A stretch of 64,000 nucleotides of DNA from Omnitrophica bacterium GWA2_41_15. Its GTDB lineage: Bacteria > Omnitrophota > Gorgyraeia > Gygaellales > UBA12090. The position numbers and the translations under genes are program-made. The DNA lies in the NCBI GenBank assembly GCA_919902675.1, contig CAKKRH010000010.1, positions 38,614 through 102,613 on the forward strand, written 5' to 3'. The notes beneath the pieces were generated by a model that was not told the DNA's origin, ran no database searches, and saw nothing but the letters and a program-made list of their open reading frames with translations. Shown here in pieces: positions 4,352 through 63,210 of the stretch (position 1 is its first letter; each line of letters starts with the position of its first letter).

Positions 4352-4831
4352 TTACCTGGAAGGTTTTTCTAAGCGCACAAACCAATTGATCAATAGATCT
4401 GATAGCCCGCGTAAATCCTCATGCGGTACGTGAGCGGCTATTTCGGCTAATTTTTTATGATATCCAGGCCAAACCCTATCCAAAATCCCTGAGCCTTTCT
4501 GGGTAATTTTTATCAAATTCACCCTTCTGTCGCCTTCCTGGGCAAAACGCTCAATCAGGCCTTCCTGATGCAGCCTGTCTAAAAGCCGGGTCATATTTGA
4601 AGCGGTAACAATTAAATGCCTTCCTATATCTGCCTGGCTTAGGCCTTTCTTTCCCCCCTTATGCTTGAGCACCATAAGGGCGTTAAACTTGGCGGGGCTC
4701 ATAGCAAAGGGGCGCAAATAATCAGAAATCAGCTTTTCAATAGTAAGATACACGGAAGCAACTCCATAAATTGCCCCCTCAGTTAAATTATCCTTTCCTA
4801 TCTCTATCCCAAAACGCTCAAATGGCTGCAT
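4352..4831 (-). CDS. MarR-family transcriptional regulator
   Basis: Winged-helix region LSQADIGRHLIVTASNMTRLLDRLHQEGLIER...DRRV typical of MarR, 159 aa. Confidence 0.8.
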   Translation of the reverse strand: MQPFERFGIEIGKDNLTEGAIYGVASVYLTIEKLISDYLRPFAMSPAKFNALMVLKHKGGKKGLSQADIGRHLIVTASNMTRLLDRLHQEGLIERFAQEGDRRVNLIKITQKGSGILDRVWPGYHKKLAEIAAHVPHEDLRGLSDLLINWFVRLEKPSR

Positions 4832-7995: not shown

Positions 7996-8730
7996 CTACT
8001 CCTCCGGTGGATAAGACCCATTCAAAACAACGCTCTTGGCGCAAACAATGTCTTTTGAGCCATCCACCTTCTGCGTCAGGCTCAGGCGCACCGCCTGAGG
8101 CAATGAGGAGACATCCTCAAAGCTGTCTTTCCAGCTCAGCTGGTCAGCCTGAGAAGATTTCTCAGGCTGAGCCGAATAGGAAAATCCGGCAACCGAGATA
8201 TTAGACAATAACACCTCATATTCCGGGCTCAATGATTGATTAAGTATATCCTCATCTTTTAGATAAGCCCTCAAAAGATTAGCGCCTTCTATCTTATAAA
8301 AAACCTTAGCCGGACAGACGTAGGCCTCCCCATCGTCATTCCTTAAAACAGTCAAAGAGGCAAAAGACATTTCCTTGGAACTTCCGCTGAAGGTGATAGA
8401 ATAATCATCCGAGGCGCCAAAAATAAACGAATTCCTTAAGTCCCTGGCAAAGGCGCTTAAACTGCCGCGCAAATCCTGATAAACCTGAGATTGGGAATTC
8501 AACCGGAGGTAGCTTAACCAGCCTACGCGCAAAGAAGAATAAGCTGAAATCAAAACAATCATCCCGACCCCTATCGCCAATAAGGCCTCTATCAGGGTAA
8601 ACCCCGTTAGAGGCGTCATATTGCTTACCGACCTTCCTGCTGCCTCTAACGGGGCAGGCCCCTGAATTGTGACTTGTGGTTTGTGATTTGTGATTTCAGA
8701 ATTAATGCTCATATGAAAAACTCGATTCAT
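7996..8730 (-). CDS. gspJ: GspJ-like pseudopilin (prepilin N-terminal methylation motif)
   Basis: LTGFTLIEALLAIGVGMIVL prepilin motif. The true start may be the internal ATG at 8617-8619 (MTPLTG|FTLIE, 6-aa leader); the long form would give a 44-aa leader. The 5' region carries degenerate TTGTGAN heptads. Confidence 0.6.
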   Translation of the reverse strand: MNRVFHMSINSEITNHKPQVTIQGPAPLEAAGRSVSNMTPLTGFTLIEALLAIGVGMIVLISAYSSLRVGWLSYLRLNSQSQVYQDLRGSLSAFARDLRNSFIFGASDDYSITFSGSSKEMSFASLTVLRNDDGEAYVCPAKVFYKIEGANLLRAYLKDEDILNQSLSPEYEVLLSNISVAGFSYSAQPEKSSQADQLSWKDSFEDVSSLPQAVRLSLTQKVDGSKDIVCAKSVVLNGSYPPEE

Positions 8731-8745
8731 CCCCTGCGCGATAGA

Positions 8746-9114
8746 TCATTTCTTAACCGCGAAATAGCCGGACATACTCACCACTCCCGACCTTCTACCG
8801 TCTTTCCATTGAACGTCTAAATCCGCCTGGTTTAGTTTTAAATCCGAAAGCCGATAAACATCCATGCGGTAAGAAAAATCCGTGTTCTCAGAGAATTTTC
8901 CTTCTTTAATTATATCACTTTCCTTGGCTATAGTTTCCAAATCAAAGAATTTCTCTTCGGCCAGGATTAAAGCCGCGGTGTAATTGGCGAACTGCTGCAT
9001 CGTGTTCAAGCAGTTCATAAACGCCCGGGAAAGGTAAACAACGCTAAAACCCAAAAGGATTACCGCGGTCAAAACCTCAATCAAAAGAAAGCCCTTGCTC
9101 TTCTTTTTCATCAT
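8746..9114 (-). CDS. gspI: GspI-like pseudopilin
   Basis: MMKKKSKG|FLLIEVLTAVILLGF prepilin motif, 122 aa. Confidence 0.6.
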   Translation of the reverse strand: MMKKKSKGFLLIEVLTAVILLGFSVVYLSRAFMNCLNTMQQFANYTAALILAEEKFFDLETIAKESDIIKEGKFSENTDFSYRMDVYRLSDLKLNQADLDVQWKDGRRSGVVSMSGYFAVKK

Positions 9115-9610
9115 CGATTATTTTAACCTTATTCCGCTTAACGGAAATAACCAGCTTTTTCTTATTCGGATTAATCATTGCGATTTCCGCGCTGCTAAAC
9201 GAACCGTCGGGGTAAAAATAAATAATATTGCCCTGGCTTTCTATTTCGACATCATCGCTTACGGAAGAACCACCGTATTTACCCTTGACTCGGGCATACT
9301 CGCCGCTTTCGACATCTTTTTTTTCCAGCCAATATTCTTTTTCTTTCGCGTCTAAGACGAACTTCATCGGCACGCCCTCGACAATGGAACGCTCGCGGAT
9401 ATAACGCATATAACCGGCTATGTCTTCGGCGCAAAGGTCAAGTTCAAGGCCGTAAAATGTCTTACGGAACAAAGGCGCGGACAAGCCTAAGGTAATGGAA
9501 ATAATGAGGACAACCAACAAAAGCTCAATCAGGGTAAAACCCGTCAGAGGCTTGCCTGCCGGTCTCCCCGCGGACCCTGACGAGGCAGACCAATTTCTGT
9601 CTGATACCAT
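9077..9610 (-). CDS. gspH: GspH-like pseudopilin
   Basis: KPLTG|FTLIELLLVVLIISITLG prepilin motif after a 24-aa leader, 177 aa. Confidence 0.6.
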   Translation of the reverse strand: MVSDRNWSASSGSAGRPAGKPLTGFTLIELLLVVLIISITLGLSAPLFRKTFYGLELDLCAEDIAGYMRYIRERSIVEGVPMKFVLDAKEKEYWLEKKDVESGEYARVKGKYGGSSVSDDVEIESQGNIIYFYPDGSFSSAEIAMINPNKKKLVISVKRNKVKIIDDEKEEQGLSFD

Positions 9611-9617
9611 ATATCAA

Positions 9618-10067
9618 TCACTTCCAGTTGGTGACATCATCCTCAGTTCCTTCTATACCGTCTTTGCTTTTAGAGGAAAGATCATAGCTGTCGGTATTAT
9701 GCTCTCCGGGAGATTTATACACATAGTAATTATCCCAGGGGTCCTTGGCCTCCTTTTTTATATACGGGCCGTTCCAGTTCTTCGGCACGGGGTCTCCCGT
9801 AGGTTTAGCGCGCAAGGCGGCCAAACCCTGCTCAGTGGTAGGGAATTTGCCGTTATCTATCTCATACATTTCAAGGGCTGAGGATATGTTGGCCTCAATA
9901 TCGGCCTGAGCAACTGATTTTTTTGCCTGCTCCGACTTTCCCACCAATTTCGGCATAACCATGCTGGCTAAGATGCCTATGATAACCACCACCAGCATCA
10001 GCTCAATCAAGGTAAAACCTTGCTCCGTTATTTGTGATTTGTGATTTGTGATTTGTGATACCGTCAT
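9618..10067 (-). CDS. gspG: Major pseudopilin GspG
   Basis: QG|FTLIELMLVVVIIGILA followed by DPWDNYYVYKSPGEHNTDSYDLSSKSKDG, which closely matches the GspG/PulG signature. GGAGGA RBS upstream of the ATG. Confidence 0.85.
   Translation of the reverse strand: MTVSQITNHKSQITEQGFTLIELMLVVVIIGILASMVMPKLVGKSEQAKKSVAQADIEANISSALEMYEIDNGKFPTTEQGLAALRAKPTGDPVPKNWNGPYIKKEAKDPWDNYYVYKSPGEHNTDSYDLSSKSKDGIEGTEDDVTNWK
10031..10058 (-). repeat. Perfect heptanucleotide tandem repeat (TTTGTGA)x4 on the plus strand (TCACAAA x4 on the coding strand) inside the gspG leader-peptide codons
   Basis: Read directly; encodes SQITNHKSQIT. A degenerate copy (TTGTGAC TTGTGGT TTGTGAT TTGTGAT) lies at 8667-8694 at the gspJ 5' end. 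Confidence 0.9.
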
Positions 10068-10152
10068 CCTATCCTCCTTCTGATATTACGCCTTTTCGCT
10101 TTTGTTTTTAAGTTGTCCTTTATCGTTACTACACTGTAAAATAAATTTTTGA

Positions 10153-10334
10153 TAATAGAACAATAGAAAATAGACCGCAATTGAGCTTTTTTCTTGTCTA
10201 TTGTTCTATTGTCGATTGCTCAATTGCTCTAGTACATTGTTACAAAAGTTTTTGAACAATTGAACAATAGAAAATAGACCGCAATTGAGCTTTTGTTTGT
10301 CTATTGTTCTATTACTCTATTGCTCAATTGCTCT
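10153..10334. repeat. Two tandem copies of an approximately 80-bp unit (10153-10230 and 10253-10334), each with internal dyad symmetry (GCAATTGAGC/GCTCAATTGC and GAACAATAGAAAATAGAC/GTCTATTGTTCTATTG)
   Basis: Read directly in the 300-bp gspF-gspG intergenic region, which should hold the gspG promoter. Confidence 0.8.
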
Positions 10335-10370
10335 GCGCGCTGTCTATTAAAAACTTTTCTGACAGCGCGC
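10335..10370 (-). terminator. GC-rich hairpin GCGCGCTGTC-N16-GACAGCGCGC abutting the gspF stop codon. No clear U-tract; possible attenuator or mRNA-stability element
   Basis: Perfect 10-bp inverted repeat read directly; overlaps the gspF TAG by 1 nt. Confidence 0.3.
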
Positions 10371-58487: not shown

Positions 58488-59729
58488 CTACTCCAGATAG
58501 GTTACCTCCGCGCTTTCGCCGGCGCGGATAGCCTCCATATCTTCGGGCAATTCCGCGATCCCGTTAGCCAAAACCATTGATCTTAATATGCCCGACCCTT
58601 GAGGCCCGGTAAGAGAGGCATACATCCGGCCGTCCTTATTGGTCAAAATCACCCGCAGAAAATACCTCAATCCCTTTTTCTTCTCAAAATTCCCGCTAAA
58701 AACCGCCGGAAGACGAAGCCTAAAGATATCCTTAGCCCCGGACATCTTTAGAAGCGCCGGGCGCACAAACTGCTCAAAACTAACCATACCGGAGACCGGA
58801 TTTCCCGGCAGACCAAATACCGGAACTTTTCTCATTAAGCCAAAGGCCAGAGGCTTTCCCGGCTTCATAGCCACCCGCCAGAATTTCATTTCCGTGCCCA
58901 CATCCTTCAAAACATCCTTGACAAAATCGTAATCCCCCACCGAAACCCCTCCGCAGACAATTAACACATCCGCGCTTAGGCCCTGGCGAATCTTATCCTC
59001 TATGGCTTTCTTATTATCCCGGGCAATTCCTAACAATATAGGAAGGGCTCCCGCTTTAAGCACCTGCGCGTATAACGAATAGCTGTTGGAATTACGGATT
59101 TTCCCCGGGGCCAGCTTTTGCTTGATTTGTACCAATTCATCGCCGGTTGCCAATATTGCTACTTTTGCTTTTCTAAAAACCTTAATCCGGTTAAACCCCA
59201 AAGACGCCAGCATCCCGATATGACCGGATTTTAGGATTGAGCCCTTAGGAATCACAACCTCGCCCTTCTTAACATCCTCTCCCGAATAGCGGACGTTCTC
59301 CCCCTTCTCAATCTCTTTGAATATCTCAACCAATTCTTTCCTTTTACTGTGGACTGTGGACTGTGGACTGTGGACTACTCTTGTATCCTCCACCATCACC
59401 ACGCTGTCGGCCCCATTAGGCAAGGGCGCTCCGGTCATAATTCTAATTGCCTCACCCCGCCGGATTATTTTGCCAGCGGTATATCCTGCCGCCAAACTCC
59501 CCACCACCTCTAAAATTTTCGGATTCTTTCCTGTCGAGCCTTTTACATCTTCGGCTCGCGCCGCGAAGCCGTCCATGGCGCTGTTATCAAAAGGAGGAAT
59601 GTTTTCTTTGGATTTTATATCCAAGGCGCACACCCTCCCCAAAGCCGATTCAATCTTAATCGGCTCACTCTCTTTTACGCGGAAGATGTTCTTCAGGATA
59701 ATTTCTCTGGCTTGATCTACGCTTATCAT
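58488..59729 (-). CDS. moeA: Molybdopterin molybdotransferase MoeA
   Basis: MTGAPLPNGADSVVMVE and VLIVCGGVSVGDYDFVKDVL motifs, 413 aa. Confidence 0.85.
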   Translation of the reverse strand: MISVDQAREIILKNIFRVKESEPIKIESALGRVCALDIKSKENIPPFDNSAMDGFAARAEDVKGSTGKNPKILEVVGSLAAGYTAGKIIRRGEAIRIMTGAPLPNGADSVVMVEDTRVVHSPQSTVHSKRKELVEIFKEIEKGENVRYSGEDVKKGEVVIPKGSILKSGHIGMLASLGFNRIKVFRKAKVAILATGDELVQIKQKLAPGKIRNSNSYSLYAQVLKAGALPILLGIARDNKKAIEDKIRQGLSADVLIVCGGVSVGDYDFVKDVLKDVGTEMKFWRVAMKPGKPLAFGLMRKVPVFGLPGNPVSGMVSFEQFVRPALLKMSGAKDIFRLRLPAVFSGNFEKKKGLRYFLRVILTNKDGRMYASLTGPQGSGILRSMVLANGIAELPEDMEAIRAGESAEVTYLE

Positions 59730-63052: not shown

Positions 63053-63180
63053 AAAACCCTAAACTCTAAACCCTAAACTCTAAACAAACTCAAAACCTAA
63101 AACACAAAATTCAAAGATTTTGTTTTGGACATTCGGGTTTTGAGTTTTAGATTTGTTTATGATTTAGAGTTTTATGCTGT
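63053..63180. terminator. Long imperfect palindrome (CTAAAC/CTCAAAACC-rich arms) between the pckG stop and the purC start; probable pckG terminator or structured spacer
   Basis: Read directly: arms of about 45 nt centred near 63115. Confidence 0.3.
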
Positions 63181-63210
63181 TACCACTTTTTAACTACATA
63201 AGCTTAAATT

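Follow-up and report, generated by a model that had tools for sequence, protein, structure and literature searches.

Heptanucleotides are the most abundant long simple sequence repeats (long SSRs) in most genomes (PMC4679880, PMC4692102). The prokaryotic heptanucleotide long SSRs (Mrazek and co-workers 2007) include the cyanobacterial STRR heptamers, TAACTGA of the Beggiatoaceae and GGGAATC of Xanthomonas, and the known families are mostly intergenic (PMC4679880, PMC4692102). At hmw1/hmw2 of H. influenzae, tracts of ATCTTTC drive phase variation; they lie in the 5′UTR, number 11-63 repeats, vary between and within strains and require a G-rich arm and RNase III (PMC12721329). A different kind of precedent is offered by the long leaders of type IVb pilins and class III signal peptides, in which G(-1), F(+1) and E(+5) follow a leader that exceeds the usual 5-8 residues. 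Rickettsia palindromic elements (RPE), REP, Correia and MITE-like elements are small palindromic repeats that insert in frame into genes.

The locus described here was analysed within a stretch of 64,000 nucleotides (the window), in which the following features surround the start of gspG; a slash marks the predicted prepilin peptidase cleavage site.

9618-10067, minus strand: gspG, major pseudopilin gene, 149 aa (Pfam T2SSG, 2.1e-32, and N_methyl)
10017-10067, minus strand: leader codons of GspG, 17 aa, MTVSQITNHKSQITEQG, before the G/FTLIE cleavage motif (sequence and translation)
10030-10059, minus strand: perfect heptanucleotide array (TCACAAA)x4.3 (TRF, period 7, 100% matches)
10073-10080, minus strand: strong Shine-Dalgarno sequence GAAGGAGG, 5 nt 5′ of ATG 10067 (sequence reading)
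10146-10334, minus strand: 104-nt unit, 1.8 copies, in the gspF-gspG spacer (TRF)

The gene opens with ATG (10067) ACG GTA, followed by (TCACAAA)x4, TAACGGAGCAAGGT and TTT ACC TTG ATT GAG, which reads MTVSQITNHKSQITEQG/FTLIE. Sequence, translation and TRF thus agree with the preliminary description, which had placed (TCACAAA)x4 inside the GspG leader peptide. The product has G(-1), F(+1) and E(+5), a hydrophobic N-terminal helix, a T2SSG domain and a gspE-F-G-H-I-J-K context, and its homologues at E<=1e-10 (n=2139) include several source-named Omnitrophota GspG. No in-frame start other than ATG 10067 lies between that codon and the G/F site, and the Shine-Dalgarno sequence and ATG are aligned and conserved in the related L001, L002 and L008. 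TCACAAA is free of stops in every sense frame, and the array can therefore be translated within the open reading frame. Compared with short-leader relatives, it is part of a 30-nt in-frame insertion, GTA plus the array, encoding VSQITNHKSQ. The leader of 17 residues is unusually long, as first noted, when set against typical pseudopilins, but not within the clade, whose called leaders have 4 to ~60 residues. It is also nearly uncharged. The spacer upstream is enlarged as well (~300 nt in the window vs ~53 nt in the sister clade); its 104-nt unit is present in one copy in strain L009 vs two in the window and includes a 17-nt complement of the gspH N-terminal codons, as found by repeat search.

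A second copy of the heptads lies 5′ of gspJ, and a different type of element occupies the start regions of gspJ and gspH.

7996-8712, minus strand: gspJ-like gene (Pfam T2SSJ/N_methyl, weak; open reading frame 7996-8730)
8602-8654, minus strand: palindromic module at the gspJ 5′ end (repeat search, RNA fold and compensatory changes among 15 copies)
8660-8700, minus strand: degenerate heptad array TCTGAAA TCACAAA TCACAAA CCACAAG TCACAAT TCAGGGG, 5′ of gspJ (TRF and homology)
9077-9610, minus strand: gspH-like gene with a 24-aa leader (translation and Pfam search)
9585-9575 and 9550-9540 (arms), minus strand: degenerate copy of the palindromic module in the gspH leader codons (sequence comparison)

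TRF delimits the gspJ array at 8663-8696 (period 7, 4.9 copies, 85% matches), and the upstream open reading frame that contains it translates as SEITNHKPQVTIQG. The two arrays are 86% identical over 35 nt (8660-8694 vs 10025-10059) and align without gaps from the array through the G-F-T codons. The leader modules of gspG and gspJ are thus homologous, as the claim that they are paralogous implied. These are the only two sites of the TCACAAA motif in 64 kb, both in one operon. When up to 2 mismatches were allowed, the 14-mer TCACAAATCACAAA gave 8 matches in the window vs 0.51 expected, a number equalled in 0 of 100 shuffles. The gspJ array is kept in L008, whereas L135 has ~2 units there vs ~5 in the window (21 nt fewer, ungapped); growth by whole units, by which long SSRs are recognised, is thus seen at gspJ.

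Three starts were considered for gspJ, the position of which the preliminary description had treated as undecided. ATG 8730 was rejected because the equivalent open reading frame of L008 is closed by a TGA. ATG 8712 and ATG 8619 both stay candidates: the former gives a leader of 36 aa, in which the heptad-encoded peptide lies, and has no Shine-Dalgarno sequence, and the latter, which is proximal, gives a canonical 6-aa leader, MTPLTG. The window, L008 and L002 have the proximal ATG, which L136/L137 lack. In L002, L136 and L138 the start is an ATGA that overlaps the stop of gspI; in the window this ATGA is out of frame.

The palindromic modules have the form GGGTTTACC...CCGTTAGAG, in which GGGTTTACC is a flanking direct repeat. 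At gspJ the arms, CCCCGTTAGAGGC (8654-8642) and GCCTCTAACGGGG (8614-8602), pair perfectly over 13 bp, and the loop contains GGAAGG and ATG 8619. In the 5′ arm of the gspH module, three transitions distinguish the window from L008, all of which preserve pairing (G-U or restored C-G). The modules are in frame and translated (GFTPLE...LTGFTLIE). They are concentrated at pseudopilin G-F-T codons, and their arm resembles the N-terminal codons of pilins. It is these hairpin modules, not the heptads, that resemble RPE and similar elements, being short, present in many copies, subject to compensatory arm changes, in frame and translated. Unlike those elements they cluster at the pseudopilin G-F-T codons.

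Heptads also occur in other parts of the window.

48748-48777, minus strand: intergenic heptad array, CUAACCU-like in the sense strand, 4.3 copies, 73% matches, directly 5′ of ATG 48730 (TRF)
59346-59376, minus strand: perfect array (CCACAGT)x4.4 in the moeA sense strand (TRF)
63053-63190, no strand assigned: intergenic heptad arrays AAACCCT/AAACTCT that form a long imperfect hairpin together with an inverted partner (TRF and sequence reading)

Perfect arrays of at least 3 copies with units of 5-12 nt amount to two heptads and one octamer in the window, where heptad doublets number 16 vs 4.2 expected. Among long simple sequences, heptads predominate in these 64 kb. The moeA heptads are in frame and encode VHSPQSTVHS within an 11-aa loop insertion relative to E. 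coli MoeA; in the second strain this array has the same length but is degenerate. Pairing of the gspG heptads with (ACTGTGG)n at 59346 was considered and rejected, that array being moeA coding sequence with the same strand as sense. Scanning of a genome collection found at least 120 stretches of (TCACAAA)x3 or longer in unrelated bacterial genomes, and no prepilin motif adjoins the stretches among the matches listed. The scan covered this heptamer alone, and a crude tally of its open reading frame contexts is confounded, since the antisense orientation contains stops and the sense orientation does not. Across the whole window, Rfam at gathering thresholds gave 0 matches and no tRNAs were found.

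The gspG and gspJ heptads belong to an already known class, the heptanucleotide long SSRs. As in the known families, the 7-nt units stand head to tail in a few to several copies, and heptads are over-represented, here in the 64-kb window. They lie near gene 5′ ends and occur as inverted pairs (63053-63190 in the window, and many loci of the genome-collection scan), and their length and sequence vary between related lineages. Unlike in the mostly intergenic families, heptads are here translated, in a type III (prepilin) signal peptide and in MoeA.

Comparison with relatives was used to follow the history of the gspG array. It has exactly 4.3 units in the window, L008-L014 and P0027, and is the same in all of at least 10 independent assemblies that represent two strains, different wells and different filters; unit numbers were taken from consensus assemblies, where minority length variants would not appear. 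The two strains are 96-97.7% identical in coding sequence and 87% in the 5′UTR. The array is perfect in both, beside 4 substitutions in the adjoining 15 nt 3′ and a 5′UTR that is 13% diverged. At the divergence rate of the coding sequence, the chance of 30 unchanged bases is ~0.3, and this is therefore a weak signal of selection or homogenisation. In L001, a more distant orthologue, the array is of equal length but has decayed by substitution to ISQIKNYRPQILSRG, and its leader shares 7 of 15 residues with that of the window vs ~93% identity in the mature parts.

L002-L007 and L135 lack the array. In the closest sister clade the leader has the normal 5 residues, MRKQG/FTLIE, and cluster-mates more than 90% identical in mature GspG have the leaders MRKQG, MRKRG or MSKRG, without the array. 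More distant homologues of both GspG and GspJ also have short leaders. No intermediates of array length were found at gspG in the relatives. Among JGI metagenome contigs, a variable-gap scan for leader versions of 2-6 units returned only the one known 4-unit contig, and 10 predicted length variants or truncated fall-back products were all absent from a collection of 15 billion proteins in an exact look-up. Codon changes between the window and L008 are all non-synonymous upstream of gspJ (7/7) and in the gspH leader (5/5), which gives these stretches the look of unconstrained peptide. The preliminary description had set conservation of the peptide against conservation of the DNA; neither alternative held. 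Both drift, with almost no synonymous-only change.

Taken together, we consider the gspG tract to be probably a stable, nearly neutral heptanucleotide simple-sequence insertion that is tolerated in a cleaved leader. It would have arisen via slippage or duplication and then been fixed in frame within the leader codons. Prepilin peptidase would remove everything before G/FTLIE, including the ten extra residues VSQITNHKSQ; these would then cost little, and the insertion would therefore persist. It would do so as a length polymorphism among lineages with little or no effect on fitness, not as a switch. The gspJ copy shares its origin with the gspG copy and would be the older of the two; it may either have grown locally from a proto-repeat of ~2 units or have been exchanged by recombination between similar pseudopilin 5′ ends. 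This long leader differs from those of type IVb pilins, which it resembles in the G(-1)/F(+1)/E(+5) residues, in that its extra length is recent, repeat-derived, nearly uncharged and lineage-specific and is no conserved family trait. Both 7/14-nt repeats and palindromic elements, the latter in frame, have accumulated at the 5′ ends of the pseudopilin genes. Two observations argue against strict neutrality. The perfect array beside diverged flanks could reflect selection or homogenisation. Moreover, repeats of 7 or 14 nt recur directly 5′ of the G/FT codons in the related operons L135, L139 and L140, which may point to more than relaxed constraint.

The preliminary description had offered a shared regulator-binding or translational-control motif as its alternative, on which the evidence points neither way. 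A role at the RNA level is one that we regard as possible but rather unlikely. The G-free, CA-rich array would keep the first ~40 nt of the gspG coding region single-stranded, and would serve as a translation-favouring spacer, a ribosome standby site or a docking site for a protein that binds single-stranded RNA (S1, or one of cold-shock type that recognises heptamer units). The same would apply to the region 5′ of the gspJ hairpin, and the outcome would be an excess of the major pseudopilin over the minor ones. The predicted probability of being unpaired over positions +4 to +40 is 0.83 with the array vs 0.47 after its deletion in silico and 0.54 in L002, and the gspG start region is predicted to be the most open among the five pseudopilin genes (0.64 vs 0.29-0.55). 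The array has stayed perfect in both strains while its flanks changed, and another G-poor heptad array lies directly 5′ of ATG 48730. For Beggiatoaceae, a role in translational regulation has been suggested for heptads 5′ of start codons, and heptamer units are bound by CspB (PMC4679880). However, the predicted accessibility of the Shine-Dalgarno sequence and AUG (-15 to +15) is not altered by the array (0.62 vs 0.64), and folding of the gspG 5′ region equals that of shuffles (z = 0.0). The sister clade works with a 5-residue leader and without the array, and the L001 array has decayed.

A broader version of this idea, to which we give a low probability, is that the bases just 5′ of the G/FTLIE codons in every pseudopilin gene of this Omnitrophota clade form a dedicated, fast-evolving RNA control region. 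Unstructured heptads in gspG and GGGTTTACC-flanked palindromes in gspH and gspJ would have been recruited to it and translated as disposable leader. The recruited elements would set the relative translation or stability of the major and minor pseudopilin messages, and the 3′ hairpin arm would have two possible pairing partners, the upstream arm and the FTLIE codons.

The preliminary description had proposed contingency-locus behaviour, in which slippage by one unit would switch GspG off and on in the population, together with the downstream pseudopilins via polarity or coupling. Part of this stands: the tract is perfect and within the open reading frame, and a gain or loss of one or two units does shift the frame, with stops after 10-23 codons. 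It also resembles hmw1/hmw2, where heptanucleotide tracts drive phase variation (PMC12721329), in that its 7-nt units lie towards the 5′ end of a gene connected with the surface or with secretion, where unit changes could in principle alter expression. However, length variation was zero across the at least 10 assemblies (wells, filters and strains) and in the look-ups of predicted variants, length is conserved even in the decayed L001 copy, and the sister clade is without the tract. The similar array in the housekeeping gene moeA is also length-stable. The caution already voiced that four units are few for high-frequency slippage is borne out, as 4 units (28 nt) compare with the 11-63 that occur naturally at hmw, the one well-studied heptanucleotide switch (PMC12721329). 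The gspG units are invariant and have no complementary partner, unlike those of hmw. To judge from the sample names, the organism is moreover no host-adapted pathogen but a bacterium that lives in groundwater, either free or as an epibiont. A contingency locus is therefore very improbable.

It is equally hard to credit a functional pro-peptide module, SQITNHK(S/P)QI, common to GspG and GspJ and acting in targeting, chaperoning or delayed cleavage. The reading frame is open in all copies, and the difference between L135 and the window at gspJ is exactly 21 nt; some replacements among the window, L001 and the gspJ copy are conservative (H/Y, K/R, I/V), and long leaders are clearly translated in relatives (L136, and gspH in all clades). 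But the codon changes are non-synonymous, without a purifying signature, and the leaders of the window and L001 have diverged far beyond the mature parts (7/15 residues shared vs ~93%). The nearest sister clade lacks the module, and gspJ has the canonical proximal start MTPLTG, while ATG 8712 lacks a Shine-Dalgarno sequence. Finally, transcription-factor binding to the heptads as operators of the operon is extremely improbable: both occurrences of the motif in 64 kb do fall within one operon, but its 7-bp spacing is unphased with the helix, one site lies in the coding region 3′ of the start codon, a promoter/terminator consensus scan around the operon gave no signal above shuffles, so that no promoter-like signal stands out nearby, and sister operons with equal gene order lack the motif.

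A tolerated insertion in a cleaved leader is thus the reading that we favour. Alone, the gspG repeat matters little, but it shows that a repeat can be perfect and lie within an open reading frame without acting as a switch, and that signal peptides which are cleaved off have room for junk DNA. In secretion pilins the leader codons tolerate the arrival of simple repeats and of palindromic elements that keep the frame, and these produce leaders of 4 to ~60 residues among near-identical strains. This is relevant to the annotation of gene starts in uncultivated phyla, to the leader length that prepilin peptidase tolerates, and to a possible effect of such insertions on the proportion of major to minor pilins.

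The source organism is a groundwater member of the Omnitrophota, the name carried by the best GspG matches; samples of Hainich groundwater yielded the related contigs. The window has a G+C content of 44%, and its minus strand encodes a type II secretion/type IV pilus-like operon, whose genes were assigned with Pfam:

13297-11588, minus strand, gspE
11578-10370, minus strand, gspF
10067-9618, minus strand, gspG
9610-9077, minus strand, gspH-like
9114-8746, minus strand, gspI-like
8730-7996, minus strand, gspJ-like ORF
7959-6901, minus strand, gspK
same operon, minus strand, pilM-N fusion and pilO

The gspG gene starts at ATG 10067, 5 nt past GAAGGAGG. Its first codons are ATG ACG GTA, (TCACAAA)x4 and TAACGGAGCAAGGT, then TTT ACC TTG ATT GAG, which translate to MTVSQITNHKSQITEQG followed by FTLIE. 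No further start codon lies between ATG 10067 and the cleavage motif, and the repeat is therefore translated. It is tolerated inside an ORF because TCACAAA is free of stop codons in every sense frame. TRF places the gspG array at 10030-10059 (period 7, 4.3 copies, 100% matches) and the gspJ copy at 8663-8696 (period 7, 4.9 copies, 85% matches); the double-unit heptad pattern occurs 8 times in the window against 0.5 expected. The heptads are thus correctly described, in every detail, in the preliminary description made from the sequence alone. Its view that the gspG and gspJ leader modules are paralogous is also borne out, as the array and its copy share 86% identity across 35 nt and align without gaps from the array through the G-F-T codons.

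The 90%-identity protein cluster holding the window GspG has 21 members. The majority are 137 aa long, with the canonical leaders MRKQG, MRKRG or MSKRG ahead of FTLIE, and a long leader occurs in only three forms: that of the window, that of the second strain (MTVSQITNHKSQIMERG; loci L008-L010) and a more distant one (MISQIKNYRPQILSRG). Compared with the window, the second strain is 96-97.7% identical in coding sequence and 87% in the 5'UTR, with four substitutions within the 15 nt directly 3' of the gspG array; the array itself is perfect and matches exactly over 30 nt. At the related locus L001, whose mature gspG is 91% identical, the array has equal length and is decayed by point substitution (TCTCAAA TCAAGAA TTACAGG CCACAAA TCCTAAG). 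In the sister clade (L002-L007, 86% identity), the aligned SD-ATG is followed immediately by AGG AAA CAA GGA TTT ACC. The comparison of orthologous gspG 5' ends envisaged in the preliminary description therefore finds the repeat present in the second strain, decayed at the same length in L001 and absent from the sister clade. These DNA comparisons show the array to be part of a lineage-specific in-frame insertion of 30-36 nt, which has drifted in sequence and kept a fixed length.

Perfect arrays of at least three copies with units of 5-12 nt are limited, over the whole window, to two heptads and one octamer, and heptad doublets are 3.8-fold enriched relative to shuffles. Heptad arrays outside the pseudopilin genes are the following:

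59346-59376, minus strand, perfect (CCACAGT)x4.4, in frame in moeA (58488-59729)
48748-48777, minus strand, degenerate array, sense CUAACCU-like and G-free, filling the spacer of 52 nt that immediately precedes ATG 48730
63053-63190, intergenic, inverted arrays AAACCCT/AAACTCT and complement, a long A+U-rich imperfect hairpin

The moeA array encodes VHSPQSTVHS, part of an insertion of 11 residues compared with MoeA of E. coli, and the second strain has a degenerate segment of the same length (VHSSQFIVHS). As at gspG, this array drifts yet remains stable in length. The inverted arrays lie between a PEP-carboxykinase-like gene and purC, and their architecture resembles that of inverted heptad arrays at many Acidobacteriota loci with TCACAAA. 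A genome-contig scan for the TCACAAA unit alone found, among the matches listed (L015-L134), more than 120 stretches of (TCACAAA)x3 or longer, in Acidobacteriota, Bacteroidota, Planctomycetota, Cyanobacteria, CPR and others. They are usually mixed with TCNCAAA variant units and often face an inverted TTTGTGA array; none of these listed stretches adjoins a prepilin motif. The heptad excess of the window agrees with published surveys, in which heptanucleotides outnumber all other long SSRs in most prokaryotic genomes, a pattern that may have polymerase-related causes (PMC4679880, PMC4692102). The gspG heptad belongs to a genome-wide habit of heptad repeats.

In the best-supported reading, which we consider rather probable, a near-neutral heptanucleotide SSR would have become fixed within a disposable GspG leader. 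The main rival is a role of the array at the RNA level. Positions +4 to +40 of gspG are predicted to be almost fully unpaired with the array (0.83, compared to 0.47 on in-silico deletion), and the predicted start region is the most open among the five pseudopilin genes. However, the array is predicted to leave the SD/AUG region unaffected (0.62 versus 0.64), the sister clade does without it, and L001 has allowed it to decay.

The readings of the array as a switch, a pro-peptide or an operator are each very improbable. The preliminary description had proposed a contingency locus, and rightly held that a one-unit change breaks the gspG frame: a change of one or two units in either direction is predicted to truncate the product after 10-23 codons. 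The switch itself is unsupported. No length variant of the gspG array was found in any assembly compared, assemblies being blind to rare variants; the exact GspG protein of the window is present on seven contigs, that of the second strain on three, and the same leader on one 2.155-Mb contig. In the metagenome collection, a variable-gap pattern allowing 2-6 units matched nothing except a 4-unit contig that was already known. Exact look-up of ten predicted GspG products (±3 units in frame and three alternative starts to which gene callers would fall back following a frameshift, each on both strain backgrounds) found none among ~15 billion proteins. In H. influenzae hmw, the single heptanucleotide switch studied in depth, the ATCTTTC tract has 11-63 units naturally and never fewer than 11 (PMC12721329). 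Finally, the decayed but length-conserved copies in L001 gspG and second-strain moeA argue against a switch. On the 2.155-Mb ENA contig, the same gspG is called as 102 aa (entry P0027), being truncated by a frameshift near codon 100 (NWNARI in place of NWNGPYI) that is probably a long-read consensus error unrelated to the heptads.

The gspJ ORF reads MSINSEITNHKPQVTIQGPAPLEAAGRSVSNMTPLTG ahead of FTLIE, and its array is kept, slightly more regular, in the second strain. The related locus L135, whose GspJ is 67% identical, has AATTCCAAAATCACAAATCGC at this site, with some two units and a length reduced by exactly 21 nt, suggesting that the gspJ array grew from a proto-repeat; it appears to be older than the perfect gspG array. 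Several states of the L001 gspG leader recur in the gspJ copies: TCT (unit 1), CCACAA (unit 4) and the terminal CCGGGG. The leader is as similar to these copies (67-75%) as to its own orthologue (65-69%), and the two sites therefore share an origin. Adjacent pseudopilin genes, whose 5' ends are near-identical, probably exchanged sequence there, and the window gspG was later re-homogenised.

The true gspJ start, a point raised in the preliminary description, is narrowed to two candidates. ATG 8730 was rejected, as a stop codon closes the equivalent ORF of L008; an ATGA overlapping the gspI stop serves as the start in L002, L136 and L138 but falls out of frame in the window. A start at ATG 8619 yields a canonical leader of 6 residues, and this codon sits in a hairpin loop of 27 nt, containing GGAAGG, whose sequence is 100% conserved between the two strains. 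The other candidate, ATG 8712, has no Shine-Dalgarno sequence. Since gspJ of L136 and L137 has no proximal in-frame start, and gspH of all clades is necessarily translated through the equivalent hairpin, a long GspJ leader is possible. In the stretch upstream of gspJ, 7 of 7 codon changes between the strains are non-synonymous, and the peptide, if made, would be unconstrained.

The few dozen bases upstream of the pseudopilin G-F-T codons appear to form a junk-tolerant zone that collects repeats. Tandem repeats of 7 or 14 nt adjoin G-FT of gspG, gspH or gspJ in related operons (L135 5014-5066; L139 ~1590-1650 and ~1080-1105; L140 3170-3195 and ~4520-4598), where they yield long leaders of the PLSAK or RRKTHDA type. 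The same codons also host in-frame insertions of a palindromic module, which is composed of [GGGTTTACC]CCGTTAGAG, a 17-, 23- or 35-nt loop and CTCTAACG[GGGTTTACC] and is translated as GFTPLE...LTGFTLIE. It is additionally found within L140 gspI and in one non-pilin spacer of L135. Repeats and modules are located as follows:

L135 and L139, before gspH, CCGCTAT/AAGCTAT-family arrays
L139 and L140, before gspG, CCGCTATCCGCTAA, source of the PLSAK leaders
L140, before gspJ, AAGACGCACGACGC x2.9
8602-8654, window gspJ, perfect palindromic module
9540-9585, window gspH leader, degenerate palindromic module
L002 4076-4191 and 5051-5172; L139 1111-1160 and 1683-1745; L140 4262-4314; L135 12550-12650, palindromic modules of relatives

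Over 15 distinct copies of the module, pairing holds in 86% of cells, and in six pairs both partners have changed; 0 of 500 shuffles reached the covariation score (0.241 versus 0.140). In the degenerate gspH module, three transitions separate the window from L008, and each of them keeps pairing. The 3' arm can alternatively pair 10/11 with the FTLIE codons. Copy number changes in 69-nt steps between near-identical strains, and among the 142 loci compared no module was found outside these Omnitrophota loci. From general knowledge, it resembles in-frame palindromic elements such as the RPEs of Rickettsia. A change from TAACGG to TAATGG separates the window from L008 twice, at 10024-10029 in the gspG leader and at 8605-8610 in the 3' arm of the gspJ hairpin; a concerted change, a CpG-type hotspot or coincidence may account for it.

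The gspF-gspG spacer is also enlarged, to ~300 nt compared to ~53 nt in the sister clade. Elements in this region are the following:

10146-10334, 104-nt unit x1.8 with internal 8-nt repeats and inverted repeats
10335-10370, 10-bp G+C-rich hairpin GCGCGCTGTC / GACAGCGCGC, overlapping the gspF stop codon, no U-tract

The 104-nt unit is the extra spacer DNA, with two copies in the window and one in the second strain (L009). Each unit holds AAAAGCTCAAT(..), the complement (17 nt, 94%) of the gspH IELLLV codons at 9513-9529. In L009 the hairpin survives through a single compensating pair of substitutions (C>T with G>A).

The gspG feature is a further instance of an already known type of heptanucleotide SSR, and the heptads themselves are of little interest; the pile-up of repeats and palindromes in the leader regions is a modestly interesting side finding.
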